Shown here piece by piece: positions 14,282 through 29,746 of a stretch of 64,000 nucleotides of DNA. The position numbers were made by a program, and so were the translations under genes. The stretch is from the NCBI GenBank assembly GCA_021782205.1, contig JAJXVH010000005.1:6833-70832 (forward strand), written 5' to 3'. The notes beneath the pieces were generated by a model. The model did no database searches and had not been told where the DNA came from. It was given only the letters and a program-made list of their open reading frames with translations. Positions within the stretch are counted from its first letter, which is position 1. Every line of letters begins with the position of its first letter. The stretch comes from a bacterium. GTDB lineage: Bacteria > Elusimicrobiota > Elusimicrobia > UBA1565 > UBA9628.

Positions 14282-14330
14282 AGCGGTGTTCTCCTCAATG
14301 TTCGCATCTTAGCAAAGTCCCGGCCGGGCG

Positions 14331-16766
14331 CTACGCCGGGCCGCCGTCCAGCGTTCGGCGCAGCGCGCGCGCCAGGGCCAAGGGCTCCGCCGGTTTGCCC
14401 AGAAACGGCGCGCCGCGGCGCCGGATCTCCTGCGTCAGTTCCAGCGGCGCGAAGCCGCTCAGGAAAAGCACCTTGAGCTCCGGACGTCGAGCCTTCATGC
14501 GGTCGTAGGTTTCCAAGCCGTCCATTCCCGGCATCACCAGGTCCAAGACGACTGCGCGCACCTCCGGTTCGGCGTCCAGCACGCGCACGCCCTCTTCGCC
14601 GCCCGAAGCGCAGAGCGTCGCGTAGCCGAAGCCGCGCAGGAGTCGTTCCAGCGTGGATCGAACCATCGGCTCGTCGTCGACGATCAAGACTTTTTCGGCG
14701 CCGCGTGGCGGCGCCGCGTCGGCGACAGCCGCGGGCGCGGCTGGCGAAGGGCACGCGGGCCAATACACGCTGACCAAGGCGCCTTTCTCGGGGGCCGTCG
14801 AGATGTCCAGCCCTCCGCCGTGCTGGCGCACTATCCCGGAAACCACGGCCAGCCCCAGACCCGTGCCCTCGCCGAACGGCTTGGTCGTGAAGAAGGGTTC
14901 GAGCAGTCGCGCGCGTTCGGGCACAGGAACGCCAGGCCCGTCATCGGCGACTTCCAAGACCCAGTAGCGTCCCGGGGGCACGGGCAGCAGCGCGTCGCCG
15001 CGCCCGCGCTCCAGCGCCTCCTCGCGCAGACTCACGCGGACCGCACCCTTTCCGGAGACGGCGTCACGGGCGTTGAAGCACAGATTGAGCAGAACCTGTT
15101 CGGCTTGACCCGCATCGGCCATGACCCAGGCCGGACCGCCGCCGGTCCGCAGTTCCAGCGCGACGCGGCGACCCAACGCCGCTCCCAGCATCTTGCTCAT
15201 GCCGGCGACCAGTGCGTCGAGGTCCGTCGGCCGCCGTAGCGCCTCGCGCCGACGGCTGTAGGTCAGAAGTTGCGAGACGAGATTCCCGGCCCGCCGTAGA
15301 GAGGTGATGATGCCGTCCACGTCCGCGGAGCTGGGGTGCTGAGCGCCGAGCGATGTCAGCACGATCTGCGCCAATCCCGAGGCTGCCATCAGGATATTGT
15401 TGAACTCGTGCGCCACGCCCCCCGCCAGGCGGCCGACCGACTCCATGCGTTGGGCGCGCATCACGCGCCGCTCCTGCTCGCGCAGTTCGGTCGTCTTGAA
15501 TTCGACCAGCGCGCTGATGCGCTCCGCGCGGCCGTATAAAGTCAGCGCGATCCAGCTCGCCAGATACATCAATATCAGCACGCGTCCCAGCACCAGCCAG
15601 CGCTGCAAATCGTCCCCGGAATATTGAGGGCCCGGACCGGGCCGTGCCGCGAGGAGCCAGCGTCGTCCGGCGGCCTCCACGCTGCGCGCGGAGCCCGCGG
15701 TATCGGCGCCGTCCTTGTTTGTTGCGGGCGAAACGAGAAACTCCACCGAGGTGTCGGACCCAGACAGGCCGCGCGCCGCCTGGTCGACGTCGAACTCGCC
15801 TTCCACCGTTCCCGAGGGTCCGAAAGATCCGAACGGCCGTGCTTCGGCCCGGAGGAGCGCTTCACCGGAGCGGTGGGACGCGTCGGCGGGCTCCCGATAG
15901 AGCGCCGCTTCCGACGAGGGCGGCCGCCATGCCAAAGACAGAAGCTCCGGATGTGTCCGCAAAACGGCGCGTGCATAAGCGGAAAATTCGTTCCGATCCA
16001 CGCGTGGAAAGCTTTCAAAGAGCGCAGCCGCGCCGCGTACCGCGTTAAAGCTTGAGTCGATCTGCACCCGCAGCGTCAGAGCCGCGTCATCGAGCCGGCG
16101 CTCTGCGCGCGCGTGCGCCCGGACCTGTTCGCTTCTCAACGTGTAGTCGTGGATGGCGAGCACCAGGATCAAGGTGGCGGACATGGTCGCGGTGACGGTC
16201 GCCTTGCCGCGACGGGATCCCGCGAGTCCGCGTCCGGACCATAAAAGAATCAACGGCGCGGCAAAGACCACGCCGATGGCGTCGCCGACCCACCACGTGG
16301 CCCACGTGTAGAGCGACTGGGAGGCGGTGATTCTTCCAAAGAGAAGCAGGCCGGCCGTCCCCCAAACGGAGGCGACCAGCCCGGCCAGCGGCCCGGCGGC
16401 CATCATGAAACGGAATAGAAGCTTCTCCTCGGACAGCGGTTCGCGCCCGCCGGTCGCGCGGCGGGCCAGAGTCGCGGCGGTCAGAGCCTGGGCGGCCGCG
16501 CCCGCGCCGATCCACGCGGCCAAGAACGTCGGCGCGGCTCCGGTCGCGCCGCGCAGCCAGGCGCCCGCCGCGTTGGCGGCCAGCGAGCCGAGCAGGACGC
16601 CGGGCCACAACTCCGCGCCCCACAACCACAAGGCGGCTACGGCGATGCCCGCCGACGGCCAGGCGATCGCCGCGTAGCCGGGCGAGATGGCGAAGGCCAG
16701 GGCCGCGCCGCCTGCCGCGAAATAAGCCAGCGCCAGAATCAGAGCGCGGCGGCCACGCGAGCTCAT
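14331..16766 (-). CDS. hybrid sensor histidine kinase (MASE1-like membrane sensor, CHASE-like segment, HisKA, HATPase_c, C-terminal receiver)
   Basis: Internal ATG at 16766..16764 begins MSSRGRRALILALAYFAAGGAALAF with multiple TM helices. H-box GVAHEFNNIL, G-boxes DDGPGV / GTGLGLAVV, and a C-terminal REC (LIVDDEP..VVLDLVMPGMDG..KVLFLSGF). The 270 aa upstream in the 14331..17576 track ORF overlap the PIG-L gene out of frame and are rejected. Confidence 0.85.
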   Translation of the reverse strand: MSSRGRRALILALAYFAAGGAALAFAISPGYAAIAWPSAGIAVAALWLWGAELWPGVLLGSLAANAAGAWLRGATGAAPTFLAAWIGAGAAAQALTAATLARRATGGREPLSEEKLLFRFMMAAGPLAGLVASVWGTAGLLLFGRITASQSLYTWATWWVGDAIGVVFAAPLILLWSGRGLAGSRRGKATVTATMSATLILVLAIHDYTLRSEQVRAHARAERRLDDAALTLRVQIDSSFNAVRGAAALFESFPRVDRNEFSAYARAVLRTHPELLSLAWRPPSSEAALYREPADASHRSGEALLRAEARPFGSFGPSGTVEGEFDVDQAARGLSGSDTSVEFLVSPATNKDGADTAGSARSVEAAGRRWLLAARPGPGPQYSGDDLQRWLVLGRVLILMYLASWIALTLYGRAERISALVEFKTTELREQERRVMRAQRMESVGRLAGGVAHEFNNILMAASGLAQIVLTSLGAQHPSSADVDGIITSLRRAGNLVSQLLTYSRRREALRRPTDLDALVAGMSKMLGAALGRRVALELRTGGGPAWVMADAGQAEQVLLNLCFNARDAVSGKGAVRVSLREEALERGRGDALLPVPPGRYWVLEVADDGPGVPVPERARLLEPFFTTKPFGEGTGLGLAVVSGIVRQHGGGLDISTAPEKGALVSVYWPACPSPAAPAAVADAAPPRGAEKVLIVDDEPMVRSTLERLLRGFGYATLCASGGEEGVRVLDAEPEVRAVVLDLVMPGMDGLETYDRMKARRPELKVLFLSGFAPLELTQEIRRRGAPFLGKPAEPLALARALRRTLDGGPA

Positions 16767-17560
16767 GGCGCGAGCAGGGCCGCGACGTCGGCGTCCACGG
16801 GCGCGATCCGACCAGGGCCGGAGACGCGCGCCAGCGCCCGACCGTCCCACCGCGACAGCCGGTAGAGCGAGGCCCAAGAGGCGCCGCCCGCCGCCGCTCC
16901 CTGCCCGCCGACAAGCTCCGCGCCGCGGCGCGCGCCGTCGGCCAGCCAGCAGGGCCAGAGCGCGTGATACGGATTGCGCGCGACCTCTCCGGCGTGGCAG
17001 GTCAGCGCGGCGAGAAGGTCTCCGGCCACGGCGAGGTCGGCCTCCACCAGCGCGTTGGGGTCTTCGAGCGTGGACCAATACTCGGACTCGGCCGCGACGG
17101 CGCCGGGCTTGAGGCCCGCCCGGCGCAGCGCCGCCAGCGCGCGGCGGTGGACGGCGCGGTGGGTGGCGTTGGCGTCGCGACGGTGCGGCAGGACGATCAA
17201 GCCCGGCCGCGCGTCGCGCACGATCTCGTGCAGCGGACGGTCGGCGGCGCAGAGGAACTCCCAGCCCAGGCGCGCGCACGCGGCCGCCATCTCCGCGCGC
17301 CGCGCGCAGCGCCGGTCCAGCCGCGAGCCCAGCGTGACCGCGACCGCGATCACGCGCCAGCCGCTCTCGCGCTGAAGCCGCCGGGGCAGCACGCCCATCA
17401 GGCACTCGTCGTCGGGGTGCGGCGCCAGGATCAGCGCCGTCGGCGCTCCGGCGCGGGCGCGCGGCGCCGGGCGCGCGGGAGCCTGCGCGTTCGGCAGGCG
17501 GCGGCCCGCCGCGAGCAGGCGGGAGAAATCGCGCAGATATTTTTCGTGAGGCGTGGTCAT
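16763..17560 (-). CDS. PIG-L / LmbE-family N-acetylglucosaminyl deacetylase
   Basis: ILAPHPDDECLMG motif plus downstream His/Asp pattern; its stop overlaps the histidine kinase start (ATGA). Confidence 0.75.
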   Translation of the reverse strand: MTTPHEKYLRDFSRLLAAGRRLPNAQAPARPAPRARAGAPTALILAPHPDDECLMGVLPRRLQRESGWRVIAVAVTLGSRLDRRCARRAEMAAACARLGWEFLCAADRPLHEIVRDARPGLIVLPHRRDANATHRAVHRRALAALRRAGLKPGAVAAESEYWSTLEDPNALVEADLAVAGDLLAALTCHAGEVARNPYHALWPCWLADGARRGAELVGGQGAAAGGASWASLYRLSRWDGRALARVSGPGRIAPVDADVAALLAP

Positions 17561-17627
17561 GGGCGGCGCAGGTCAATTAGACGAGATTTGGCGCCGTGGA
17601 CTCAACGCGCCAGCGTGCTGCCCGACC

Positions 17628-17656
17628 GGAAAAGAGAAAGCCGCCCGGCGGGCGGC
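17628..17656 (-). terminator. rho-independent terminator on minus strand (likely the original terminator of the tRNA-Asn locus, displaced by the island)
   Basis: GCCGCCC-GGC-GGGCGGC stem; on the minus strand it is followed by TTTCTCTTTTCC, and it lies immediately inside the left direct repeat. Confidence 0.5.
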
Positions 17657-17678
17657 CTCTCAAGCGAAGTTATGTCTG

Positions 17679-17695
17679 GCGTACAAAATGGCTCC
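17679..17695. repeat. 17-bp direct repeat GCGTACAAAATGGCTCC (att-like, left copy)
   Basis: Identical to 25566..25582, which spans the 3' end of tRNA-Asn (TGGCTCC is the reverse complement of GGAGCCA) plus 10 nt of flank. Confidence 0.75.
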
Positions 17696-17780
17696 CCGTA
17701 TCCGACGCTCTTCAAACCGGAATGGGGCCATTTTATGAGTTTAGGGGTAGAGGCGGGCGCGAGGGTCGGAAGGGATCAAT

Positions 17781-18443
17781 CTAATGTTTTTTGGAACTCG
17801 GTAAAGGGGCTTCACAGAGTTCGATGAGTTGCTGAAGCTCCCTGAAGCGGACCCATTCCTGCGCAAGCTGTTCTCTTTTCAGATTCCCCCCGTCAGCCAG
17901 AACAGCCTTTATCTCTATATCCATTTTCTCTACATACGCGGCCAATTCAGCCTTAAGCATGCGTCGAAGACGAAGTAGCGTAAGTAGAGGACGATTAAGC
18001 TGTAACAGCTTGATCATGTATGCGGCGGGTGGTCGTTTTCCTTCGAGCGTGCCGTCAGTCTTGACCTCGAAATAGAGACGGCGATCATCCGCGAATGGAT
18101 CGATAAATCCAGCGACTCCGTCATGCGGATTTGACGGATGTGTTGAGGGCCAGCAAGAACCTTTGAGTCGATTACAGCGGCCGCAGGAATGGTGGAAATT
18201 ATTCGGATCGTTTTTGAGATGGGAGAATTCAGCGCGCGACCACGGACGGAAGTGGTCTAGTTCCATGGATTCGCGTCCACCGACTTCCATCTCGTGTGAA
18301 TCGCAGTATACGCACCTGCCGTCACAGTCGCTGGCGATTTCCTCGCGACAATGCTCGCGGAAAAATTCGTAGCTATAGAATTCGCCATTCGGCTTTGTCG
18401 AATATTTCGAACGCCTTTTAAGTTGCAGGAAAAACTCACTCAT
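17781..18443 (-). CDS. HNH endonuclease
   Basis: CVYC...ELDHFRPWS...NNFHHSCGRCNRLKG shows two Cys pairs flanking the His-Asn-His catalytic core; encoded in low-G+C DNA. Confidence 0.8.
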   Translation of the reverse strand: MSEFFLQLKRRSKYSTKPNGEFYSYEFFREHCREEIASDCDGRCVYCDSHEMEVGGRESMELDHFRPWSRAEFSHLKNDPNNFHHSCGRCNRLKGSCWPSTHPSNPHDGVAGFIDPFADDRRLYFEVKTDGTLEGKRPPAAYMIKLLQLNRPLLTLLRLRRMLKAELAAYVEKMDIEIKAVLADGGNLKREQLAQEWVRFRELQQLIELCEAPLPSSKKH

Positions 18444-18461
18444 AGCGTTCTAGACGCGGAA

Positions 18462-19097
18462 CTACGGCAAGGGAAGATCGTTTTTATTAATGTGCTTCTT
18501 CAGCTCAGCAATTGCATCCTGGAGCGCCTTAACATCACCGATTTCTTTTGCCTGCTGAGGGAGTATGCGCTCCTTTTCCAGAAGACCCATCTCGGCCGCT
18601 TCTTCTGGAGGCAATGATTCCCGCAAGCTCTTCACGAGTAAATCTTGATAGCGTTGAGCCCGAGCCCCGAGAATTTCGGCGAAGCCTCCAAGGCGTCGGA
18701 GAAATCGAGCTTTGAAAATCTGTGCGTCTCGAGTCGTCGGGTCAGCTATGGTTTTCTTCGAAATAACGTACTCGACAGCGTCGGCGTCCTTCTCAAGAGC
18801 GGGGTCGTCTGTGTAGTTTGAAAGTATCACGATAGGAAGTTTGGACATGAACCCGCGCAAGTACGCGGATAGCTGTGTACCCGTATAGCCCACACCCCCA
18901 TCCTCCATTTTTTGATCGAGAACGAGTCCGATCACTGAACCGTCTGCGAGTATAGCCGAATAATCTTCAACCTTCGGCAGAGGAGCCATTGCCTTCACCA
19001 CAATCCCGGTATCGGCAAACAGCTCTCCGAGTACCCGCGCGTATGCGCGTCGTTGTTCGTCATTCTCATCTATAAAGCAAATCGTGATTTGGTTCAT
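18462..19097 (-). CDS. stand-alone receiver (REC) domain protein with alpha-helical C-terminal extension
   Basis: REC residues at canonical spacing: acidic pocket ICFIDEND, phospho-acceptor Asp in GLVLDQKM, Ser in PIVILSNY, Lys in EYVISKK. The ATG overlaps the stop of the upstream GHKL gene (ATGA). Confidence 0.65.
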   Translation of the reverse strand: MNQITICFIDENDEQRRAYARVLGELFADTGIVVKAMAPLPKVEDYSAILADGSVIGLVLDQKMEDGGVGYTGTQLSAYLRGFMSKLPIVILSNYTDDPALEKDADAVEYVISKKTIADPTTRDAQIFKARFLRRLGGFAEILGARAQRYQDLLVKSLRESLPPEEAAEMGLLEKERILPQQAKEIGDVKALQDAIAELKKHINKNDLPLP

Positions 19098-21349
19098 GAT
19101 TTCACTTCCGGAGTCTCAATTGCTCTCGGGACGGTTATGATGAAGCATGCGCCACCTAACCCGCCCTTGGCCAGGGCTCTAACGGTACCGCCCGTATTCT
19201 CTTGCACGAACATTTTTACGATATATAGACCCATCCCAGTTCCTTCTTGCTCGCCTTTGCTATTCCGACGAGTTGAGAAACCCGCGTCAAACACTTGATC
19301 TTCAGTGCCCGCTTCCAATCCGAAGGCGCTATCCTCGAAGGTCAGGGTATAATTGGCTGGGTCTGCCTTAATTGAAAATCGAATTTTTCGTAAGCCCGGA
19401 TGCTTCGTGATTGCCCACATTGCATTTGTAATGAGGTTTGCGAAGATGCTCTCCCAATCGATAGGGTAAGCCCGAATGGGGCATTCCTCAGCAGGAAGAT
19501 CTGTCAAATCGATCTCTATTTTTTTCTGATGCTGAAGTGATTCACCGAAAGCCGCAAACACATCAAGGGCCATTTTTTTGACGCAGAAAATTCGTTGGCG
19601 ACGCTTATCCGGCCGGACGTTTCCCAAGGCGAAGCCGGCAAATGTTTGAAGCCGTTTGGCGTCCGTCCCGATGTCAGTCAAAACTTGCAAGACTTCGGCC
19701 TCTTTGTCCGACGTAACCATGAAAAAATGGGATTTCAGATTTCGATCCAGCCATAGAGAGTTCGTCGTTACCGAGTTTGCCCAGCCAGAGGTTTCGTGAC
19801 CGAAACAGGCTGCCAAAATGCCAAGAGAGGCCAGGTTTGCCAAGGTGTCTTTCTCGCGTGTCGTTTGGACGCGTAGCAGGTTCTCCTGCTTTACGTTTTC
19901 TTCAAGAGCCTTCATGGAGCGAGATAGAGTTTGCGTTACACGGGCGACAATATCACGTACCTCGTCGCCTTTGGGAGGCACCGTGACAGCGCCAGGGGCC
20001 GGCGGCATGAGCAGGTCGAGTTTCTTCGACAACTCCCCCAGTTCTAAAAGAGCCGCATCGGCCTGGGCGACTGTTTCTTTCGCATCGGCTGGAACGTCCT
20101 GCGCACCGGGCTCTTGTGTTTTGCGGGCCCGTTCGAATTTCTGATGTTGCTTTTCAAAGAAAACGAGAACCTTTTCAGAAAAGATGTAAAGGTGCCGGAA
20201 AGCTCCCCCTTTGACGAGCCCCTCGCGATTGGTCTGATCAATCAGTTCAAGGTTTCTCTCGCGGCTCAAGAATACGGCGCCGACGACTTGGTTGTAGCCG
20301 AGACGCCAATTTCCTTTTTGCTTTACGCCTTCGGGATTTATAGTTCGCCGAAATCCTAGGCGGAGCCAATCACCTTCACCGCTCGGCTCACCGTAAGGTT
20401 TTACGCGAAAGCCATCACGGTATATACGTATTCCCTGGTTATTCTTTAAGAATTGATCAAGCTGAGGACGTCGTAACGACTGACCGGGAGCGTCGAGCTC
20501 GCCTCGGTGAAAAAAATAGAACACAAGAGTTAGAGGGCCGCATCTAGGCTGATCACCCTCATTTTTCGTGAACTCAGTCCACGGCACGGGTTGCAAATGA
20601 TATTCCGTTTGATGGAGCTTCGAAGACATCCGAATTTCAACAAAACCGGCTGCATCGATGGTTCCGAGGACCTTCCAGTAAGCGTTGTTGAGTGCCGCAG
20701 CATCAGGGGTGATTGGCCCATCGAATTTCGGGAATACGCCGCCCGTATCTAATTCCACGCCGAAATCGTAAGACGCGCCGAATGGCGAAACTAGCAGGGA
20801 CAATTCGCTGTGCAGCTCCTCAATCGCAGACTCATCCCATTGATCCTTAAGTCCTTCAAGAATTAAGCGAGTGCCTTTGGGGAACTCCTGCGTCAAACCA
20901 GTTATAGGGTCTTGATTCAGGTTCTGAAGGCTGAAGATGGGGTGGCTTACTTCTTCAAGCCGGGTCGTTCCTTCCGCTTCATACTTCAGCCAATCAACGT
21001 CTAATTCCACTGCCTCGGAAGCGCCAAAGGTGATTGACTGGACGCGAGTTCGCGCACAGAGTCGATCAAGACCTAGGCGGCCAAGGCCTTTCTCCCCCGT
21101 CAGAATCCGACGCTTGCCTTCAGATTTTTTCGCAGACGCCTTGTTTGCGGTGCCTATGACCATCCAATTCGCTTTGAGCGCCTTCGATGACATCCCATCG
21201 CCATCGTCTTGAATGACCAGCGTCATCGTCGCTGTATTCAGGCCCGCAAAGCGAATGCGGACCAAATCAGCATCGGCATCGTATGCGTTCTTTACGAGTT
21301 CGAGGATCGCGGTAACAGAGCTGGAAATGCTTTCTCTGCCGAGTTGCAT
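19094..21349 (-). CDS. GHKL-superfamily protein with N-terminal HATPase_c_3-type ATPase plus a C-terminal histidine-kinase core (H-box + HATPase_c)
   Basis: N-terminal ELVKNAYDADA (N box), DDGDGM (G1), GEKGLGRLG (G2). Central ACFGHETSGW (H-box-like). C-terminal NLITNAMWAI, D..FGLEAG, GTGMGLYIVK (N/G1/G2). Start is taken at the internal ATG (MQLGRESISS..) to avoid an 82-nt overlap with the methyltransferase gene. Confidence 0.7.
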   Translation of the reverse strand: MQLGRESISSSVTAILELVKNAYDADADLVRIRFAGLNTATMTLVIQDDGDGMSSKALKANWMVIGTANKASAKKSEGKRRILTGEKGLGRLGLDRLCARTRVQSITFGASEAVELDVDWLKYEAEGTTRLEEVSHPIFSLQNLNQDPITGLTQEFPKGTRLILEGLKDQWDESAIEELHSELSLLVSPFGASYDFGVELDTGGVFPKFDGPITPDAAALNNAYWKVLGTIDAAGFVEIRMSSKLHQTEYHLQPVPWTEFTKNEGDQPRCGPLTLVFYFFHRGELDAPGQSLRRPQLDQFLKNNQGIRIYRDGFRVKPYGEPSGEGDWLRLGFRRTINPEGVKQKGNWRLGYNQVVGAVFLSRERNLELIDQTNREGLVKGGAFRHLYIFSEKVLVFFEKQHQKFERARKTQEPGAQDVPADAKETVAQADAALLELGELSKKLDLLMPPAPGAVTVPPKGDEVRDIVARVTQTLSRSMKALEENVKQENLLRVQTTREKDTLANLASLGILAACFGHETSGWANSVTTNSLWLDRNLKSHFFMVTSDKEAEVLQVLTDIGTDAKRLQTFAGFALGNVRPDKRRQRIFCVKKMALDVFAAFGESLQHQKKIEIDLTDLPAEECPIRAYPIDWESIFANLITNAMWAITKHPGLRKIRFSIKADPANYTLTFEDSAFGLEAGTEDQVFDAGFSTRRNSKGEQEGTGMGLYIVKMFVQENTGGTVRALAKGGLGGACFIITVPRAIETPEVKS

Positions 21350-21429
21350 TGCGACTCGGGCGCTTACAGAAAAGGGCGTTGTCCCAATAAATTTCCGGGA
21401 CTTGTCCTCATGCTTTTCTTGTTTTTGAT

Positions 21430-22776
21430 TCAAGCTTTGCGCTCGGTGCGTTTCGTAGTCGTCGTGTAAGGAATTGCTCCGACAGCGGCTACAGTTAGGT
21501 GCCGGCAGCAAATTCGCCGATTGAGAAATCTGTTCACCCTATTGGATTTAAGTTGCCTCATCAGGTGCAGGCAGCTCTTTAGCGTCTTATCTTTTGGCTC
21601 GCAAACAATCAGATGGTTCTCTACAGCCACTGAAGCCTTCCCAGCAATCACAGTCGCGGTGGCGCGGTAGGGATGTCCTGGACGAGAAGTCCGCCGAATC
21701 ACGACAAACGGTGCTTTATAAACGAGCCCTTTATGTTTGCGAGTTTCCGCTAATTCACGCAGGGTCCTCCACGCAGGGACAGAGCGAGGATGAATATAGG
21801 GGTGCTCTGGCCCGGATTTTTTGTCTCGGTGAGGAACCACGCGTCCGACGTGCACATCGAAGCAGTCCGAAACAGAAGCAGCCCTCGTTTTGTAGAGCGC
21901 CGGCCATCGCTTTGATTTTTTAAGGTTGGCGTCCCTTCGGACCAAGCGGAGAACAAATACATCTATGTCTGTAGTTTCATCGAAAACGCCATAAGGCTCT
22001 ACGAGATGGACTTCCGCGAGCTCACTAATGCGTTCTCTCCACTGTTCGGAAAATGAGCCAGCCCGGAGGACATCGGGCAGGATGGCGAGGACTTCGGTTC
22101 CGGGTCGACTCCTTTCAAGTGCCGTGACCATGAAAGTTGCCGCCATTGACACTCGGCCACCCGCCCAGGTGCACCCAGAGAGTGTACGAGCAAGACCAAA
22201 TGGGGGGTTCATTAAGAGGGTCGTTGCTCGTTTGTAGGTGTCCCTTTCTAATAGACCGTTGCCGATACGAATCTTCGGAAAAAGGGAAGCTATTGTCGAA
22301 TCTCCAGGTCGAGTTTGACCTAATCGCTGCCTCGCCAAAAGCACCAGCCTTGCTTTGGTCCCGTCGATGAATTCCGGCTGTAAATCGGTGCCTGCCAGTC
22401 GGCGTCCCCATAGCTCAAGGGTTTCAGACAAAGTAGCACCTAATGGCAGCGTTCTTGCCGCCGCCAGCAAGAGATCCCCCATGCCACAGGCCGGGTCATA
22501 AAAAAACCCTTCATGATGTGTAATTCCAGTCCGGCTCAGCAGGCGCGCACCCAATTCAGTCCCAGTAAAAAAGGTCCCGTGCTTTCTGCGGAGATGCCTT
22601 GAGGCAGTCTTCCGTAGCATTGTGCTTGCCTGGCCGTTTAGGGCAGCGACGGCATGTTCGTTCCAGATACCCCCCTGGTCAGGCGTACGTGCAAGTGCCT
22701 GAAGACGGGAAATATAGGTTCGGTAGCCGGCAAACGAACCGGGCCTGGGATTTTTGCGTGCGCCTACGGTAGGCAT
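21430..22776 (-). CDS. N6-adenine DNA methyltransferase, gamma class (motif I then motif IV then TRD)
   Basis: Motif I DPACGMGDLL and motif IV LLMNPPFG, with about 250 aa of C-terminal target-recognition region. Confidence 0.85.
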   Translation of the reverse strand: MPTVGARKNPRPGSFAGYRTYISRLQALARTPDQGGIWNEHAVAALNGQASTMLRKTASRHLRRKHGTFFTGTELGARLLSRTGITHHEGFFYDPACGMGDLLLAAARTLPLGATLSETLELWGRRLAGTDLQPEFIDGTKARLVLLARQRLGQTRPGDSTIASLFPKIRIGNGLLERDTYKRATTLLMNPPFGLARTLSGCTWAGGRVSMAATFMVTALERSRPGTEVLAILPDVLRAGSFSEQWRERISELAEVHLVEPYGVFDETTDIDVFVLRLVRRDANLKKSKRWPALYKTRAASVSDCFDVHVGRVVPHRDKKSGPEHPYIHPRSVPAWRTLRELAETRKHKGLVYKAPFVVIRRTSRPGHPYRATATVIAGKASVAVENHLIVCEPKDKTLKSCLHLMRQLKSNRVNRFLNRRICCRHLTVAAVGAIPYTTTTKRTERKA

Positions 22777-22950
22777 TTGAATAATTATCGCAAATCGTGG
22801 GGCTTTCCTGATGAGTTTTCTGAAAGGCTGCCTTGACGAGAAGCGAGGCGGGGTCCTTTCGATTGATCCAGTTCCGCGTCGTAGGGCCGAATTACTGAGC
22901 GCGCAAATCTGGTAGAATGAGTTACCGCTTAGCGTCCGAGGCCCCGATCA

Positions 22951-23688
22951 ATGCCAGTTATCCCAAAGGACTTAGAGCAAAGGGTTGGACGCGCGGTAGC
23001 GCACTATTGGAGAACGCTCGCCAGCCAGTCTCGAAAGCAGCGCAAGGGCAAGAAGGCTGACCGCGCCGGCCGCGCCGCCGTTGTTGCCGGCAAGCAGATG
23101 AACGGCTTCTGCCGTCTCGTCAGTGACGTTCTCACCGCGAACGGGATGCCAGAGGCGCATATCCATCTGGATAAGAAGCTTGAGCTTCCGGGCTTCTTCC
23201 GGCCGACCAAAAGATGGGACCTCGTGGTTGTTTACAAGGGAAAGCTGGTCGCCGCGATGGAATTCAAATCACAGCGCGGACCCTCCTTCGGCAACAACTT
23301 CAACAATCGTTCCGAAGAGGCCATCGGCACGGCGCACGACCTTTGGACCGCGTACCGCGAAGGCGCGTTTACCGAAAGCCCGCGGCCTTGGCTCGGCTGG
23401 TTGATGTTGCTGGAAGACTGCGAGGATTCCCGCTCGTCGGTCTCGATAGATGAGCCGCACTTCCCTGTTTTCCCTGAATTCAAAGGGACGTCGTACATGA
23501 AGCGCTACGAACTGCTGCTTCGCCGCCTCGTCCGCGAGCGCCTCTATGACTCCGCGACGTTCCTCGTGGCCACTGAAGCAGAGGGTAAGAAGGGCAAATA
23601 CAAAGAGCCCGCCGCCGACCTCCAGGCAAAGCAATTCTTCGCCAGCCTCGGCGGCCACATTGGAACTATTTTGGCGGGTCAATCGTAA
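22951..23688 (+). CDS. type II restriction endonuclease, PD-(D/E)xK fold; XhoI/PaeR7I-like by size and partner
   Basis: 245 aa with WDLVVVYKGKLVAAMEFKSQ (D..ExK catalytic motif). It sits 7 nt upstream of a gamma-class N6A methyltransferase; the family assignment rests on recollection of PaeR7I/XhoI sizes and is not verified. Confidence 0.5.
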   Translation: MPVIPKDLEQRVGRAVAHYWRTLASQSRKQRKGKKADRAGRAAVVAGKQMNGFCRLVSDVLTANGMPEAHIHLDKKLELPGFFRPTKRWDLVVVYKGKLVAAMEFKSQRGPSFGNNFNNRSEEAIGTAHDLWTAYREGAFTESPRPWLGWLMLLEDCEDSRSSVSIDEPHFPVFPEFKGTSYMKRYELLLRRLVRERLYDSATFLVATEAEGKKGKYKEPAADLQAKQFFASLGGHIGTILAGQS

Positions 23689-23695
23689 GAATAGT

Positions 23696-25381
23696 ATGCA
23701 CCCCCTCCTAAACCTCGGAGTCAAGTTCCCTCCCGAGGCCTACAACTACGGCAAGCGCACGTCCGGCGAGACTCATGGCGTCGTGTTGACCAAGCCTCAT
23801 ATCGTCGACATGATCCTGGATCTCGCGGGGTATTCAGAGAATCGCGACTTGGCGAACCTCCGGCTCTTGGAGCCGTCCTGCGGCACCGGGGCGTTTCTCA
23901 TCCCTGCCGCCAGACGCCTTGTCAGGTCCGCGCGACGGCACCGCCGCAAACCCTCACAGCTTTCTGATTGCATTCGCGCCTACGACATTGATCGTGTGCA
24001 TGTGGAAGCGACCAAGCGCGCGGTCGAGGCTGTTCTGAACGAAGAAGGCATCGGGAACGGCGCGGCCAAGAGCCTTGTCGAGTCTTGGATTCATGAGGAC
24101 GATTACCTCCTTGCGCCGCTTGGAGACGAAGGCTTCGATGCGATTGTCGGCAATCCGCCCTACATTCGGATCGAGCAATTGGCCCCGGAGCTGCAGAGCG
24201 AGTATCGCCGCCGATACGAGTCGCTCTTCGACCGGGCCGATCTCTACGTGGCATTCATCGAAAGGAGCTTGGGCCTGCTGAGGCCTGACGGAGTGCTTTC
24301 TTTCATCTGCGCCGATCGCTGGACGCTGAATCGTTATGGTGCGCCGTTGCGCAAGATCATCGCTGAGAAATTCCATGTGAAGGCATACGTCGATCTTCAT
24401 CAAGCCTCGCCTTTCGAATCGGAAGTCATCGCATATCCGTCGATCTTTGCCATCTCTCCCGGCACTCCAGGACCTGTTCCTGTCGCGCGTCTGTCCGACG
24501 CCTCTGCTGACGAATGCGCGGCTCTGATCCAGGGTCTGCGAGCTGGATCGAAGAACGCGATGATATCAACGTACCCATCCTGGTTCATCGCTGACGAGCC
24601 CTGGGTGTTGAGCCCCCCCGAGCATCTGAAAGTATTGCGTGACTTGGAATCGCGCTTCGCTCCGATTGAGGCCGATGGCAAGACCAAGGTCCGCATTGGT
24701 GTCGCGACGGGCTGCGATGCAGCCTACATCGTCGGCGATGACTCAGGCATCGAAAAGGACCGCCTCGTCCCCTTGGTCATGCGCGCCGACATCGAAAACG
24801 GCAAGCTCAAAAACAATCATCATTTCGTGATCAACACGTTCGATGAAGCGGGGCGGACGATCAAGCTGGCAGACTACCCGCACTTGCGCAAGCACCTTGA
24901 CGCTCACGGCCTTGAGGTTAAGCGCCGGCATGTCGCGCAAAAGAATCCGGACTCGTGGTTCCGGACGATTGATCGAGTCTATCCGGAGCTGGTGAAGGTC
25001 CCGAAACTCCTGATCCCAGACATCGCTGGATCGAATGAAGTGGCCTTGGACAAGGGGCATTACCATCCGCATCACAATCTCTACTACGTCACGTCCGATG
25101 CTTGGGACATGGCCGTGCTTGGCGGGCTTCTCAGCTCCAAGGTCGCGCTGTTCTTCATCTGGTCATACGCGACGAAGATGCGGGGCAGCTACCTGCGCTT
25201 CCAGGCGCAGTATCTCCGGCGCATTCGGATTCCGAAGCCGGAGGATATCGCGCCGCAGTTGGCCAGCGACCTCCGCGAGGCCTTCATTGCGCGCGACTTC
25301 AAGCGGCTGGACGTGCTGGCGCTTCGCGCCTACAAGCTCAAGTCTCTCCCCGAATTCGACTTCGTCGATACCAGGAAATAA
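23696..25381 (+). CDS. N6-adenine DNA methyltransferase (cognate to the upstream endonuclease)
   Basis: ATG at 23696; motif I EPSCGTGAFL, motif IV GNPPY; 561 aa. Confidence 0.85.
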   Translation: MHPLLNLGVKFPPEAYNYGKRTSGETHGVVLTKPHIVDMILDLAGYSENRDLANLRLLEPSCGTGAFLIPAARRLVRSARRHRRKPSQLSDCIRAYDIDRVHVEATKRAVEAVLNEEGIGNGAAKSLVESWIHEDDYLLAPLGDEGFDAIVGNPPYIRIEQLAPELQSEYRRRYESLFDRADLYVAFIERSLGLLRPDGVLSFICADRWTLNRYGAPLRKIIAEKFHVKAYVDLHQASPFESEVIAYPSIFAISPGTPGPVPVARLSDASADECAALIQGLRAGSKNAMISTYPSWFIADEPWVLSPPEHLKVLRDLESRFAPIEADGKTKVRIGVATGCDAAYIVGDDSGIEKDRLVPLVMRADIENGKLKNNHHFVINTFDEAGRTIKLADYPHLRKHLDAHGLEVKRRHVAQKNPDSWFRTIDRVYPELVKVPKLLIPDIAGSNEVALDKGHYHPHHNLYYVTSDAWDMAVLGGLLSSKVALFFIWSYATKMRGSYLRFQAQYLRRIRIPKPEDIAPQLASDLREAFIARDFKRLDVLALRAYKLKSLPEFDFVDTRK

Positions 25382-25385
25382 AAAG

Positions 25386-25403
25386 GCCCCTCATGAGAGG
25401 GGC
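25386..25403. terminator. short GC hairpin after the methyltransferase gene (weak or bidirectional terminator)
   Basis: GCCCCTC-ATGA-GAGGGGC preceded by AAAA (a T-run on the opposite strand). Confidence 0.4.
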
Positions 25404-25487
25404 ATAATAAACTGGTGCGCTCCGGCGCCGCGGCATTACTCGAGGCTCTTCTCCCTAGGGTGCTCCCAAAAATTCGGGCCACGTGCT

Positions 25488-25560
25488 GTCGAAAATAAAA
25501 CTGACCTTGCGCCCTCTACCGGACCTGGGCTTCCAGGTCGAGGGCGACAAAGTCAGTTTT
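25488..25560 (-). terminator. rho-independent terminator of tRNA-Asn (island-borne copy)
   Basis: Long imperfect hairpin AAAACTGAC..CGCCCTC / GAGGGCG..GTCAGTTTT; on the minus strand it is followed by ATTTTCGAC. Confidence 0.55.
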
Positions 25561-25565
25561 GATGA

Positions 25566-25582
25566 GCGTACAAAATGGCTCC
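25566..25582. repeat. 17-bp direct repeat GCGTACAAAATGGCTCC (att-like, right copy, overlapping the tRNA-Asn 3' end)
   Basis: Identical to 17679..17695. Confidence 0.75.
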
Positions 25583-25650
25583 GGGCGTAGGATTCGAACC
25601 TACAACCTTGCCGTTAACAGCGGCCTGCTCTACCGTTGAGCTAGCCCGGA
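25576..25650 (-). tRNA. tRNA-Asn (anticodon GTT), CCA encoded
   Basis: Reverse complement TCCGGGCTAGCTCAACGGTAGAGCAGGCCGCTGTTAACGGC..GGTTCGAATCC..GCCCGGAGCCA; anticodon loop CTGTTAA. Confidence 0.85.
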
Positions 25651-25766
25651 ATGGACCAGCAGTATAGCAAGGCTCGACGGTCCGGTCAAAGCGCGCGCGG
25701 GCGTTTGCCGAGAATTTACTCGGGCGGGCTTGATTTTTTTCGGGGAGATGACTATGCTTGCGACGT

Positions 25767-26825
25767 ATGGCAGACACCATCGACCTTTCCACCTTGCTCG
25801 CGGACGTGGTCTCGCGCGGAGGCTCCGACCTCCACTTGATCCACGGCATCCCCCCCATCGCGCGCATCGCCGGCGAGATCGGCGCCTTGCCCTACCCGGC
25901 CATGAGCTCGGAAGCGATCTATAAAATTCTCGAGCCGTTTCTTCACGACGCGCACAAAGGCACTTTCAAAGACGAGATGCGCGTCAACTTCTCGCAGACC
26001 ATCGCCGACGTAGGGCGCTTCCGTTTCAATCTCTATCTCGCGCTCGGCACGGTGGGTGCGACCATCCGCGTGATCCCGACCAAGACGTATCCGCTGTCCT
26101 CTCTAGGCCTGCCGCCGGTCGTCGGCAACCTGGCCTACCGCCGCTCCGGCATCATCTTCGTGACCGGCTCCACGGGCTCGGGCAAAAGCACCACGATGGC
26201 CGCCATGCTGGAGTGGATCAACCAGACCGGGCGTCCGGGCAAGGTCATCACCATCGAAGATCCCATCGAGACCTTGTTCAAGCCCTGCCGCTCGATCTTC
26301 GTCCAGCGCGAGGTCGGCGTCGACACCCCGACCTACGACATCGGCATCATGGACGCCCTGCGTCAGGACCCCGACATCCTTTGCATCGGCGAGATGCGCG
26401 ACGCGGCCTCCATCCGCGCCGCCCTGCTCGCGGCCGAAACGGGCCATTTGGTCTTGACCACGCTGCACACGCGCGACGCATCCAAGACCGCCCAGCGCAT
26501 CATCACCGCCGTGCCCAACGCCGACCAGGAATCTCTGCGCGAGCAATTGGCCGGCACGCTCGAAGCGGTGATCTCCCAGGAACTTCTACCGCGCGCCGAC
26601 GGCAAGGGCCTAGTCGTGTCCTGCGAAATTCTCATCGCCACGCCGGCCGTGCGCCAGCTCATCCGCGAAAACAAGATCGAGTCCATCAACGACGCCATCC
26701 AGGCCGGCGCGCAGGCCGGCATGATCTCGCGCGACGCATCGATCAAGAATCTCTTCATCAAAAAGCTGATCACCAAGGAGACCGCCGCGGAGCATATGCG
26801 CAACCCGGACCTCCTCAACCGCTGA
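25767..26825 (+). CDS. pilT: type IV pilus retraction ATPase PilT
   Basis: Walker A GSTGSGKST, Asp box, ..ISQELLPR.. and a C-terminal AIRNLIREGK-like segment; strong overall PilT pattern. Confidence 0.9.
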   Translation: MADTIDLSTLLADVVSRGGSDLHLIHGIPPIARIAGEIGALPYPAMSSEAIYKILEPFLHDAHKGTFKDEMRVNFSQTIADVGRFRFNLYLALGTVGATIRVIPTKTYPLSSLGLPPVVGNLAYRRSGIIFVTGSTGSGKSTTMAAMLEWINQTGRPGKVITIEDPIETLFKPCRSIFVQREVGVDTPTYDIGIMDALRQDPDILCIGEMRDAASIRAALLAAETGHLVLTTLHTRDASKTAQRIITAVPNADQESLREQLAGTLEAVISQELLPRADGKGLVVSCEILIATPAVRQLIRENKIESINDAIQAGAQAGMISRDASIKNLFIKKLITKETAAEHMRNPDLLNR

Positions 26826-27166
26826 TGGCTTCCGCTCGCCCCGAGCGGCTGCCGCTGGACGAACCCACGGCCGAGTCGGTCTTCCGCGCGTTCCAACTGG
26901 AAGGCTTCTTCCCGGAGTTCAGCGCGGAGTTGTGCGGAACGGTCTTCCCGCACAGCGGCGTCCACCAATTTCGCGCCGGAGAAAAAGTCATCGAAGGCGG
27001 CGAGAACGGCCGCGATCTGTACCTCGTTCTCGCCGGCAGGGTGTCCGCCGACGAGTCGGCTTTCGTCTATCGCCTGGACTACGAGGACGTCAGCTACCTC
27101 CTCAAGAACAATCCCGCGTTGGCCGAACATCTGCACGAGCTGGCCCGCGCGCGGACCGCCCCATGA
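26825..27166 (+). CDS. small cyclic-nucleotide-binding-domain protein
   Basis: TGATG overlap with the pilT stop; FRAGEKVIEGGENGRDLYLVLAGRV matches the cNMP-binding beta-roll signature. Confidence 0.55.
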   Translation: MASARPERLPLDEPTAESVFRAFQLEGFFPEFSAELCGTVFPHSGVHQFRAGEKVIEGGENGRDLYLVLAGRVSADESAFVYRLDYEDVSYLLKNNPALAEHLHELARARTAP

Positions 27167-27813
27167 TCGTCGCCGTCCTCGTGGCGGCTTTGGCCGCAGG
27201 GCGAGCCTCGGCCCAGTCGGGTTTCTCCGCCCCAGGCGACACCGCCGCGTTTGCGCTGCCGGATGGGCCCGCGGGTTTTACTCAGGCGCCCTCCTGCCCG
27301 CGGGGCTTCACCCGACTGGCCACGCCCGACGCGCTCCAGCATTTCCGGTGCGTGCCCGAAGGTTCGGGCACGGCCGCCCCAGCGGCGCCGGGAGCGAGAC
27401 TGCGCGCCGGCGTTCTGTCGTTTGCGCCGCCGCCGGGCTTTCGTGTGCAGGACGATTGGAAGGACTCGGTTCCCATGATCTACATGGAATTGGCGGACTC
27501 GGGTCCCGGCAAGCCCGTGTCGATCACAATCTCGCATCTGGGGCCGAATCAGTCCGATTTCGCCGACCTCGACGCGGCGGTGCGCCGCGACGAGCGCTGG
27601 CAAGGAGCGCGCGAGGTCAAGCCCCTGCGCGTGCTCGGCGTTGACGCGCGCGTCACGGAGGTTCCTGAACGTGCGCTGTCGGTCTATCTTCCGGACGGTC
27701 GGGATTCGTATTATGCCTTCGTGTTCTCCGGTCCCGAGTCTCTCTACGCGCGTCGCCGCCCGGATTTTCTGCGCCTGCTCAAAAGCGTCCGGCGCCAGGC
27801 CCGCCGCCCGTGA
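27163..27813 (+). CDS. secreted hypothetical protein
   Basis: ATGA overlap with the upstream gene; signal peptide MIVAVLVAALAAGRASAQ. Confidence 0.5.
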   Translation: MIVAVLVAALAAGRASAQSGFSAPGDTAAFALPDGPAGFTQAPSCPRGFTRLATPDALQHFRCVPEGSGTAAPAAPGARLRAGVLSFAPPPGFRVQDDWKDSVPMIYMELADSGPGKPVSITISHLGPNQSDFADLDAAVRRDERWQGAREVKPLRVLGVDARVTEVPERALSVYLPDGRDSYYAFVFSGPESLYARRRPDFLRLLKSVRRQARRP

Positions 27814-28580
27814 GCGAACTACAGGAGCGCTCCGAGGGCGCGGTGCGCGTGCTGACCTTCGCGCGCCCCCCCGGCAATACACTGACGACGGCGTTTCTGG
27901 AGACACTCCGCGCGCGCGTGGAAGCCGCGGGACGCGAGGGCGGCGTGCGCGCGCTGGTGCTGGAGTCCTCGGTCGACGGCTATTTTTCCAGCGGGATGGA
28001 CCTTGAGGAACTCCTGTCCTTGCCCGCACCGCGCCGCGGCGAATCCTTCCAGGCACTCATCGCGGTTTACCGAGCCTTGCTGTGTTTCGAAAAGCCGTGC
28101 GTCGCGGCGCTGTCGGGGTCGGCATTGTTGGGCGGCTGGGTGCTGGCGATGGCCTGCGATTGGCGGGTTATGGGAACGCACGCGAAAATTTCATTGGCCG
28201 AGATCCGTGTGGGGCTGACGCCCACGCCTGCGCTGGTTGCGCGCCTATCCCAACTGAGCGCCAATCCGCAGATCGTCAAAGAGATGGTCCTGCGCGGACG
28301 CTCTCTGAACGCGGAGGACGCCCTGGCCGCAGGCCTGGTTGACGAGGTATGCGCCGAAGAAGAGACGCGCGCCTCGGCGCTCTCCGCCGCGGTGCGTCTG
28401 GCGAAGTCCGCGCCGCGAGCCTTCGCCCGGATCAAGGCCACGCTCAACGCGGGCGCGTCCGATGCGGCGCTCTGGGACCGCGCTCTCAAGGAATTTTCCG
28501 ATGTGTTCGCCGGCGAAGAAGCGCGAGAGGGCCTGGCCGCGTATCGGGCCAAGCGCCGCGCGCGCTGGGAGGGCGCATGA
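27810..28580 (+). CDS. enoyl-CoA hydratase/isomerase (crotonase) family protein
   Basis: Crotonase-fold pattern: ..FSSGMDLEEL.., oxyanion-hole region CVAALSGSALLGGWVLAMACD. Confidence 0.8.
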   Translation: MSELQERSEGAVRVLTFARPPGNTLTTAFLETLRARVEAAGREGGVRALVLESSVDGYFSSGMDLEELLSLPAPRRGESFQALIAVYRALLCFEKPCVAALSGSALLGGWVLAMACDWRVMGTHAKISLAEIRVGLTPTPALVARLSQLSANPQIVKEMVLRGRSLNAEDALAAGLVDEVCAEEETRASALSAAVRLAKSAPRAFARIKATLNAGASDAALWDRALKEFSDVFAGEEAREGLAAYRAKRRARWEGA

Positions 28581-29419
28581 GCCGCACATACGCCAAGGAC
28601 TTGCTGTCCGGGCGCGTCGCCGTGGTGACCGGCGGCGGCAGCGGCATCGGCCGCGTCGTGGCCTCGGAGTTGGCCGCGCATGGCGCCGACGTGGTCCTCG
28701 CCGCGCGCGACACCGCGCGCCTGGACGAGGCCGCGCGGGCCATCGCCGCCCAGACCAGACGGCGCGCCATCGGTGTTTCAACCGACGTCGCCGACCCCAA
28801 ATCCGTCGAGGCGCTATTTTCCCGCGTCGACGCCGAGTTCGGCCGTGTCGACATCCTGGTCAACGGCGCCGCCGCCAACTTCGTACGGCCTTCGGAGACG
28901 TTGACCTCGGTGCGCTTTCGCAAGGTGATCGACATCGTGCTCCAGGGCACGTTCTCGACCTCGATCGCTGCGGGCCGGCGCATGCTTGCGCGCGGCGAGG
29001 GCGCCATCGTCAACCTGGTCGCGTCCTACGCCTGGACCGGCGCGCCGGGCTTCCTGCCGTCGTCGGCGGCGAAGGCCGGCGTGGTCTCGCTGACCCGCAC
29101 GCTGGGCGTGGAGTGGGCGCCGCGCGGCGTGCGCGTCAACGCGGTGTGCCCGGGCCTGATCGACACCCCGCAGTCGCGCGAGCGCCTGTGGCCGGAGGAG
29201 TGGATGCGCGAGGAACTGCTGAGCGGCGTGCCCGCGCGCAAGTTCGGCTGCGAAGAGGACGTGTCCGACGCGGTGCTTTACCTTTGCGCGCCCGCCACGC
29301 GCTATGTCAGCGGCGAGGTGCTGGTCGTCGACGGCGGCTCCTCGGTGGGCGGCGTGCCTTATTTGCGCTTCGTCGAGAAGGCCGGGAAGATCCGGCGCGC
29401 GCGGCCCGACAAAGACTGA
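28577..29419 (+). CDS. short-chain dehydrogenase/reductase (2,4-dienoyl-CoA reductase-like)
   Basis: ATGA overlap with the upstream gene; TGGGSGIGR, NGAA, YxxxK-type region ASYAWTGAPGFLPSSAAKAG. Confidence 0.85.
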   Translation: MSRTYAKDLLSGRVAVVTGGGSGIGRVVASELAAHGADVVLAARDTARLDEAARAIAAQTRRRAIGVSTDVADPKSVEALFSRVDAEFGRVDILVNGAAANFVRPSETLTSVRFRKVIDIVLQGTFSTSIAAGRRMLARGEGAIVNLVASYAWTGAPGFLPSSAAKAGVVSLTRTLGVEWAPRGVRVNAVCPGLIDTPQSRERLWPEEWMREELLSGVPARKFGCEEDVSDAVLYLCAPATRYVSGEVLVVDGGSSVGGVPYLRFVEKAGKIRRARPDKD

Positions 29420-29444
29420 GGGCCCCCCTTCACCGGGGAGCCCT
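29417..29444. terminator. bidirectional GC-rich hairpin between convergent genes
   Basis: GAGGGCCCCCC-TTCAC-CGGGGAGCCCTC. Confidence 0.45.
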
Positions 29445-29467
29445 CACTTCGCGCGCGGCGTCCGAAC

Positions 29468-29746
29468 TCAGGCCGGAGCGCCGTCGTGGTGCTTGGCGTT
29501 GGCCTCGCGGTAAGCATCCTTGGCGGCTTTCGCGGCGGCCAGGACAGCTTCTTTTTTCGAGCTCGACTCGTCCTTGACCTTGTCGAGTATTTCGACGCCG
29601 CGCTCGCGGCGCTCCTTGAGCCAGTCCGCCAGCTGCTCGCGCGTCTCGGAACCCGCGCGCGGCGCGAAAAGCACGCCTAGCGCTGCGCCCACCGCCGCAC
29701 CGGTCAAGAACAGAAGAACGCCGGAACCCGTCTCGTTGTCGGCCAT
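29468..29746 (-). CDS. YtxH-domain small membrane-associated protein
   Basis: LLFLTGAAVGAALGVLFAPRAGSETREQLADWL matches the YtxH pattern. Confidence 0.55.
   Translation of the reverse strand: MADNETGSGVLLFLTGAAVGAALGVLFAPRAGSETREQLADWLKERRERGVEILDKVKDESSSKKEAVLAAAKAAKDAYREANAKHHDGAPA

Follow-up and report, generated by a model that had tools for sequence, protein, structure and literature searches.

A defence island at the 3' end of a tRNA-Asn gene in an Elusimicrobia genome: probably a decayed integrative element of the large serine recombinase type

Boundaries of the island

We analysed a 64,000-nucleotide stretch of a high-G+C Elusimicrobia genome from an uncultured soil or groundwater bacterium (GenBank assembly GCA_021782205.1, contig JAJXVH010000005.1, positions 6,833 to 70,832 of the forward strand), here called the window and numbered from its first letter. 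At the 3' end of a tRNA-Asn gene the window holds an island of ~7.9 kb (17696-25565) that lies between two copies of a 17-bp direct repeat and carries six open reading frames (ORFs). A sequence-only reading had singled out this segment as a low-G+C island without an integrase, either a decayed integrative element or one mobilised in trans; that proved to be the right pair of options, and decay can now be sharpened to a particular enzyme family, the large serine recombinases (LSRs). The boundaries are defined by the following features.

25576..25650, minus strand: intact tRNA-Asn(GTT), the integration target (ARAGORN; Rfam RF00005, 64.4 bits)
25566..25582: proximal direct repeat, the tRNA-side junction core (putative attL), with 7 nt of tRNA 3' end and 10 nt of trailer; predicted crossover dinucleotide TC at 25580-25581
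17679..17695: distal direct repeat, the far junction core (putative attR), with TC at 17693-17694
17627..17659, minus strand: displaced native tRNA-Asn terminator, a 10-bp GC-rich stem (17637-17659) and T-tract with the tail CTCTTTTCCG (terminator scan and trailer comparison)

The 17-mer, GCGTACAAAATGGCTCC, occurs exactly twice in the window and still only twice when up to two mismatches are allowed. The chance expectation is 0.02, and 100 shuffles never produced more than one match. Within these 64 kb the 17-mer is not a common repeat; had it been one, the original proposal would have been undone. It consists of seven nucleotides of the tRNA-Asn 3' end (GGAGCCA) and ten of trailer (GCGTACAAAA); pattern scan, ARAGORN and Rfam all agree with the coordinates and the division first given for it. 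The G+C content between the repeats is 0.542, whereas the two 10-kb flanks have 0.669 and 0.679, so that the windowed check recommended earlier does find a drop inside the island, together with two internal compartments of 0.52 (17696-22905) and 0.585 (22906-25565).

The structure of the island is not an assembly artefact; independent overlapping contigs cover all of it. Contig L030, from a separate assembly, spans 6763-25165 at 99.99% identity with 2 mismatches, L017 spans 22359-36825 at 99.9% identity, and L017, L018 and L020 match the window at 99.9% from 22359 onward (L020 starts at 22416). That there was no real insertion at all, the segment being an assembly chimera or ancestral gene content flanked by a chance repeat, is the least probable of the explanations we considered. 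Assemblies do break or switch inside a methyltransferase gene shared with another species, as the hybrid contig L016 (below) illustrates. Against this explanation, however, the contigs named above overlap across the island, the repeat is significant and relatives are island-free.

The right-hand neighbour of the tRNA is a PilT-like gene (25767-26825). A search with it returned homologues solely from uncultured high-G+C Elusimicrobia, and 12 of these related loci share the arrangement of the window, with tRNA-Asn upstream of PilT and the two on opposite strands. Relatives retain the order Ald-tRNA-Asn-PilT without the island: in L004 and L008 an alanine dehydrogenase orthologue (92% amino-acid identity) lies ~550 nt from tRNA-Asn, a gap that measures 11.3 kb in the window. 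In island-free relatives (e.g. L003, L004, L006, L007, L010), as read from their sequences, a GC-rich hairpin and T-run follow the tRNA after ~10-45 nt. The hairpin located immediately beyond the distal repeat of the window, on the tRNA strand, resembles those directly 3' of tRNA-Asn in L006 and L010 (GGCCGCCC...GGGCGGCC). Because island-free relatives carry a hairpin and T-run directly 3' of their tRNA-Asn, the earlier idea that an ancestral terminator was pushed away by the insertion holds. Taken together, the significant repeat, the inner drop in G+C content, the syntenic relatives without the island and the terminators directly after the relatives' tRNA support the view that the segment is an insertion at tRNA-Asn. 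Syntenic island-free loci were found in related species, but no attB was found in the same species.

A recombinase relic spans the tRNA-proximal junction

Two further features overlap at the tRNA-proximal end of the island.

25489..25590, plus strand: relic of the 3' end of an LSR gene, SKIKLTLRPLPDLGFQVEGDKVSFDERTKWLRA-stop, with the stop codon inside the tRNA (tblastn, translation, full-length LSR homologues)
25497..25560, minus strand: long hairpin inside the relic coding sequence (-56.2 kcal/mol, z = -7.2) with a U-tract

The sequence-only reading reported no integrase, and indeed profile searches of the six island ORFs gave no integrase, excisionase, relaxase, transposase or casposase. 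No intact integrase is present in the island, but the 33-codon LSR relic at 25489-25590 had escaped notice. It comprises ~33 in-frame codons and a decayed, frameshifted extension reaching back to ~25440 ('EALL'). In tblastn searches window 25489-25581 (31 aa) is 87% identical to the C-terminus of protein P0002 (E 5e-15) and 84% identical to that of P0009 (E 1e-15), and the corresponding relic in L002, a contig of another species described below, gives 75% identity over 40 residues. In a more distant relative, L012, the same ~75-nt hairpin sequence beside tRNA-Asn is the end of an ORF, ...GKIKLILRPLPDLGWSVNGDEISFDESQNWLRR-stop, which crosses the repeat into the tRNA, and the window relic is in the same frame as the end of that ORF. 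The recombinase gene of L012 (149-778) is itself 5'-truncated, contains an in-frame TAG and lies beside a lower-G+C ORF; we read it as a third, independently decayed copy of the family.

A profile of relic-type fragments matches full-length proteins of 538-743 aa over their C-terminal ~150 residues. Since these full-length homologues carry Resolvase, Recombinase and Zn_ribbon_recom domains (P0016, P0021, L039, L040), they are LSRs, and the family is related by sequence to the solved serine integrases TP901-1, SPbeta prophage recombinase YokA and A118. L039 and L040 have intact LSR ORFs (531 and 550 aa, respectively) whose ends fall within tRNA-Asn, with L029 and L038 as partial examples, and in the IMG/VR proviruses L041, L042 and L043 LSRs that are 51% identical to the tRNA-Asn family end, convergently, at the 3' ends of tRNA-Gln and tRNA-His. 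This looks like an LSR clade specialised on tRNA 3' ends. The upstream sequence at hand for the distal ends of L039, L040 and proviruses L041-L043 shows no repeat or P' motif.

The C-terminal codons of the family differ according to what they abut. ORFs that meet a tRNA end in ..WLR(A/R)-stop (L012, L029 and the window), and P0021 (on L028) ends in ..WLRD-stop at a tRNA-like 3' end. ORFs away from a tRNA run on as ..WLP.. (L026, L027), an ending shared by P0005, P0006, P0009, P0016, P0017 and P0019. When the two ends of the window island are joined the reading becomes ..TKWLPVSDALQTG.., that is, exactly the ..WLP.. form.

These observations bear directly on whether the island might be a classical tyrosine-integrase tRNA island whose integrase was lost without trace, the LSR relic being incidental. 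A class of crossover at the 3' terminus of tRNA genes reportedly exists (Williams is said to have described it in 2002), which would suit such an origin. Most tRNA-gene islands are made by tyrosine integrases (Islander, PMC4383910). In the window, however, the relic itself lies across the junction, and several genomes have intact homologues that terminate within tRNA-Asn. The dyad made by the joined island ends is of the serine-integrase type (below), and no tyrosine-integrase fragment was detected in the island ORFs. We consider a tyrosine-integrase origin very improbable.

The 14-bp lower stem of the embedded hairpin is kept in six members of the LSR family with two compensatory base pairs; in L026, for example, TTG has changed to the synonymous CTG and, on the pairing side, AAA(K) has changed to AGG(R). 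With its A4 and U4AU4 flanks the hairpin resembles a bidirectional terminator contained in the coding sequence of the recombinase, and in the window it would now terminate tRNA-Asn. An Rfam search of 17000-26200 found the tRNA only, so the hairpin does not belong to a known RNA family. What had been described as a second terminator following the tRNA (25488-25560) is indeed a terminator-like hairpin; it is also the end of the LSR relic and as such names the integration machinery.

Reconstructed attachment sites

Joining the island ends produces a virtual attP, GTTTTGATGAGCGTACAAAATGGC-TC-CCCGTATCCGACGCTCTTCAAACC, in which 16 of 24 positions are dyad-symmetric around TC; when the site was shuffled 2000 times, 0.15% of the shuffles scored as high or higher. 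No comparable dyad is present in the reconstructed attB. Like the attP sites of LSRs, the joined sequence is an imperfect dyad of ~50 bp with a non-palindromic central dinucleotide, TC, inside the repeat. Its two outer motifs are as follows.

25556..25569, plus strand: P half-site outer motif GTTTTGATGAGCGT, 10 nt from the central TC
17705..17718, plus strand: P' half-site outer motif ACGCTCTTCAAACC, an inverted copy of the P motif, 10 nt from the central TC

The outer motif, ACGCTCNTCAAAMC, has just two exact matches in the window, one at 17705-17718 and an inverted one at 25556-25569. The putative attL and attR of the window retain the core and both half-site motifs, and crossover would have taken place at TC within GGCTCC (25580-25581 / 17693-17694). 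In island-free relatives the native tRNA-Asn trailer is already similar to the P half (on the tRNA strand, nTYTGAC).

The outer half-site motif also occurs, as GTTTTGACG(A), just upstream of intact LSR starts, at 5003-5014 in L039 (start 5050) and at 2273-2281 in L040 (start 2289), where it may be an autoregulatory operator.

A restriction-modification module shared with a second species

The gene content of the island is as the sequence-only reading had described it, namely defence-type cargo (HNH, kinase/REC pair, two methyltransferases and an endonuclease). The tRNA-proximal part holds a restriction-modification pair.

22951..23688, plus strand: XhoI/PaeR7I-family type II restriction endonuclease, 245 aa (PF04555 1e-89, 190/191 profile positions; PADLOC REase_II 3.7e-93)
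23696..25381, plus strand: cognate gamma-class adenine methyltransferase, 561 aa, with Eco57I and TaqI_C domains (PADLOC MTase_II 1.8e-189)

The methyltransferase gene has its own terminator at 25386-25403. As in the XhoI/PaeR7I system, a PF04555 endonuclease, matched end to end, adjoins an adenine methyltransferase of the gamma class with a TaqI_C specificity domain, and by sequence comparison no difference from that system is apparent.

The L002 contig derives from a different species whose backbone is 74-83% identical to that of the window, and at the same tRNA it carries an island of 2.9 kb that consists of the XhoI-family pair and a 40-codon relic only. This smaller island is bounded by its own 15-bp repeat, CGTCAGAGTGGCTCC, in the same register, with a perfect terminator just beyond the distal copy; the trailer part of its repeat is CGTCAGAG. 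The restriction-modification DNA of window and L002 is 94.7% identical, far above the 74-83% of the backbone, and the synonymous divergence (dS) of the restriction-modification genes is 0.19-0.21 compared with 0.66 for the adjacent PilT gene. On these identity and dS values vertical inheritance of the module is rejected. The LSR relic is apparently truncated at the same point ('EALL') in both islands, which suggests that the recombinase was probably lost before the two islands diverged and that an integrase-less unit later came to reside in two species. We infer that the restriction-modification pair and the relic spread between species after that loss. The island is evidently a composite of two modules with different G+C content and different histories.

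The same distribution between species suggests that the window island may be mobilised. It would then be an active hitch-hiker, excised and integrated in trans by a tRNA-Asn-specific LSR (with a directionality factor) of a phage or element elsewhere, which would refine rather than replace an origin as a decayed LSR element. Consistent with trans-mobilisation, the restriction-modification pair and relic, with apparently the same LSR truncation, are found at the same tRNA in two species; the shared unit is far less diverged than its hosts (94.7% vs 74-83% DNA identity; dS 0.2 vs 0.66); the window yields a complete and symmetric virtual attP; and intact recombinases of the family exist in related environments. 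On the other hand, no helper recombinase is found within these 64 kb of the genome, searches for a circular junction or an empty site gave nothing, the P' motif is missing from the L002 copy, and other routes of transfer are possible, for example recombination between resident related islands that swaps the restriction-modification genes alone. On balance we regard trans-mobilisation as a serious but tentative refinement, somewhat more likely to be wrong than right.

Contig L016 (DAHZIE010000013.1), compared with window 22906-36825, is 94.5% identical up to ~24,900, like L002, and ~100% identical beyond, with the switch point inside the shared XhoI-family methyltransferase gene. At first sight L016 resembled a variant of the window species with the XhoI pair alone. 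That reading was rejected because part of its sequence is L002-like and part window-like, a hybrid produced by chimeric assembly or by recombination. The assembly of sample ERZ27233572 is interrupted at the place of the L016 switch, where L030 and L022 overlap by 141 nt. The closer XhoI homologues in L121, L122 and L123 have neither tRNA nor relic beside them, and no third host of the island was found among them.

The four-gene cassette

The extra 5.2 kb of the window island relative to L002 (17696-22905), which lies within the att boundaries, is a four-gene operon.

21430..22776, minus strand: N6-adenine-type DNA methyltransferase, 448 aa, first gene of the cassette (PF02384 weak; PADLOC MTase_II 3.5e-09, mad2 1.4e-09; conserved operon partner)
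19094..21433, minus strand: double-GHKL protein, ~779 aa, with an N-terminal HATPase_c_3 domain (paraMORC, BbrUII/HgiDII-like) and a C-terminal histidine-kinase core
18462..19097, minus strand: receiver (REC)-like protein, 211 aa (weak PF00072 0.0063; NF052378 9.6e-07)
17781..18443, minus strand: HNH nuclease, 220 aa, resembling PtuB and retron-associated HNH proteins (Pfam HNH 5.8e-07; PADLOC PtuB 7.7e-16; TIGR02646)

The likely start of the double-GHKL protein is a TTG at 21433 that overlaps the methyltransferase stop codon, and candidate residues of the REC-like protein, assigned by eye, are D10/E11/D13, D61, S93 and K114/K115. The same operon is found between housekeeping genes in three other assemblies, of unrelated genomes (L032, L034, L036), one of them labelled Verrucomicrobia. 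Across genomes the protein sizes are ~445 aa for the methyltransferase, ~780 for the double-GHKL protein, ~212 for the receiver-like protein and ~225 for the HNH protein, and the double-GHKL protein has >1400 homologues. A distant cassette (33-40% amino-acid identity) stands beside an XhoI-family pair in Elusimicrobia L123/L124, with no tRNA and no relic; this second association raises the possibility that the two modules are functionally linked.

Two-component-like paraMORC modules linked to restriction-modification have been described by sequence analysis (Bellieny-Rabelo et al. 2021, PMC8011034). As in the paraMORC/histidine kinase and response regulator modules (PMC8011034; Iyer et al. 2008, PMC2292703), a soluble kinase-like protein with an N-terminal HATPase_c_3 and a C-terminal HATPase_c domain is encoded here beside a small receiver-like gene and methyltransferase and HNH genes of restriction-modification type. 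The cassette differs in having an N6-adenine methyltransferase rather than the prevalent C5 type, in its fixed order of four genes and in lacking PF19191 and PF19192; the cassette proteins gave no match to HEF_HK (PF19191) or Response_reg_2 (PF19192) at E values up to 10. The cassette is probably a kinase-regulated restriction-like system.

Neighbouring genes and other features of the window

A promoter scan places a promoter-like site (TTGACC-17-TATACT) ahead of tRNA-Asn at 25661-25689. To the left of the island lies a PIG-L deacetylase gene (16763-17560, minus strand), followed by genes for a MASE1 hybrid histidine kinase and alanine dehydrogenase. The PIG-L and MASE1 hybrid kinase genes (window 14331-17560) are absent from every related locus retrieved, which suggests that variability downstream of tRNA-Asn extends past the island. 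In the distant relative L014 a 14-nt repeat of the tRNA-Asn T-arm region lies 2.4 kb downstream of the tRNA (6473-6486 vs tRNA 8909-8922) and may mark a different island, of the tyrosine-integrase type, at the same tRNA.

Elsewhere in the window, a direct repeat of ~210 bp (8536-8745 and 10406-10615, 93.8% identity) surrounds a low-G+C stretch (0.53) and encloses an ORF with a FIMAH domain (9376-10335). The G+C content of 56167-60000, by tRNA-Arg(TCG) at 56.2 kb, is 0.57-0.62; neighbouring ORFs there are ordinary (FG-GAP/ASPIC, RnfD-like, YebC) and no mobile-element genes are present in that interval.

Discussion

The explanation we favour, to which we give a probability of roughly 0.8, is that the island is a decayed LSR integrative element, resembling a cis-mobilisable element (CIME), in the 3' end of tRNA-Asn, carrying two defence modules and since deprived of its recombinase by deletion. 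An LSR would have inserted the element into the 3' end of tRNA-Asn of a high-G+C Elusimicrobia genome. The LSR gene would have stood at the tRNA-proximal end, convergent on the tRNA, with its last codons forming the P half of attP, a geometry seen directly in the relatives, and after integration its stop codon would have fallen inside the tRNA. The element would thereby have provided the tRNA with its final nucleotides, its trailer and a new terminator, namely the hairpin in the LSR C-terminal coding sequence, while the native terminator was shifted to the far end of the element. The 17-bp repeat would then be the stretch of identity between attP and attB. A later deletion of the recombinase gene would have left ~33 in-frame codons and the decayed upstream stretch, with both att half-sites kept, and the outcome would be a CIME-like island that is not self-mobile.

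Like Islander-type tRNA islands, the element has an intact tRNA on one side and a short copy of the tRNA 3' end on the other, its G+C content is atypical (0.54 vs 0.67-0.68), it carries defence genes, and relatives lack it at the syntenic locus. It differs from such islands in its enzyme family, LSR instead of the usual tyrosine integrase, and in the state of the integrase gene, which is cut to its last codons: beside the tRNA-proximal junction there is just the 33-codon in-frame relic with its decayed upstream stretch.

Compared with LSR elements (phiC31, Bxb1, A118, TP901-1, SPbeta SprA, and SCCmec/Ccr at the rlmH 3' end), the relic homologues have the same domains followed by a C-terminal region of ~150 residues, and shared as well are the reconstructed attP of ~50 bp, an imperfect dyad around a non-palindromic dinucleotide, and the short core common to attB and attP. 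At 17 bp the core is at the long end of the range for LSR elements. The differences are that the target here is a tRNA 3' end, that a terminator hairpin is embedded in the coding sequence and that the recombinase ORF crosses attP, so that its C-terminus would change on integration from ..WLP.. to ..WLRA-stop.

CIMEs are defined by loss of the integration genes and retention of the att sites (ICEberg 2.0, PMC6323972). The window island likewise has cargo only, its six ORFs all being of defence type with no integrase, excisionase or relaxase found among them; at its ends, as noted, it has a putative attL and attR with both half-site motifs and the core, whereas the L002 island lacks the P' motif. 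CIMEs were, however, defined for streptococcal integrative conjugative elements with tyrosine integrases and move by accretion, whereas the sites here are of the serine type and mobilisation is suggested, indirectly, by the occurrence of the integrase-less unit in two species.

Several observations weigh against a decayed LSR element. No catalytic part or other segment of an LSR, and no recombinase with Resolvase, Recombinase or Zn_ribbon_recom domains, is present within the 64-kb window, and LSR action at the site is read from the homologues. The attP-type junctions in L026 and L027 have no significant dyad, and the distal end of the L002 island is without the P' motif. Neither an empty site nor an excised circle of the same species came to light: an exact-pattern scan of Joint Genome Institute metagenomes with the 17-mer and either right-hand context gave nothing, and every contig retrieved by exact-protein look-up of PIG-L, the left neighbour, either bears the island or is truncated. 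The function of the cassette is a prediction from sequence. Finally, the trailer part of the repeat differs between window and L002 yet is identical in both copies within each genome. Serine recombinases require just a matching central dinucleotide. Since they do not require identical trailers, this perfect identity in both islands is a mild puzzle, and it is only partly explained by the high baseline similarity that follows from the mimicry of native tRNA-Asn trailers by the P half of the family.

Such trailers are just what would be predicted if the 15-17-bp repeats were target-site duplications, not att cores, left by a duplicative, transposition-like or restriction-modification-driven insertion, and the minimal L002 island, with its restriction-modification pair only, would also fit. 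However, (G)CGT, at the outer end of the repeat, belongs to recombinase codons (D-E-R) that are conserved throughout the family and present in non-integrated attP-type junctions as well; it is for this reason that we judge target-site duplication unlikely. In addition, no transposon-type terminal inverted repeats, transposase or casposase were found, the sole inverted motif being the recombinase half-site pair, which is placed 10 nt inside or astride the repeat, and site-specific recombination explains both the same register at the same tRNA and the recombinase relic.

A bolder extension of the decayed-element explanation would make the island a live 'integration satellite', its own serine recombinase discarded but a functional split attP kept under selection. 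It would be moved between Elusimicrobia species by a cognate tRNA-Asn-specific recombinase of a co-resident phage or element, with a defence cargo of two modules, one of them a restriction-like system run by a phosphorelay (from GHKL kinase through receiver to HNH protein), and with an LSR family that evolved a tRNA terminator in its own C-terminal coding sequence. We regard this as speculative and, taken as a whole, doubtful.

The residual codons at a junction and the symmetry of the joined ends can name the enzyme family behind an 'integrase-less' island. In the present case the XhoI-type pair has apparently spread between species after the island's recombinase was lost. The more interesting leads are two. 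The kinase/receiver/HNH/methyltransferase cassette has, as far as the literature found goes, been described by sequence analysis only, which makes it a candidate for experiment. The other is the tRNA-targeting LSR clade with its embedded terminator, whose members, from uncultured phyla, insert at the 3' ends of tRNA-Asn, tRNA-Gln and tRNA-His and whose predictable att sites could serve integrase prospecting.

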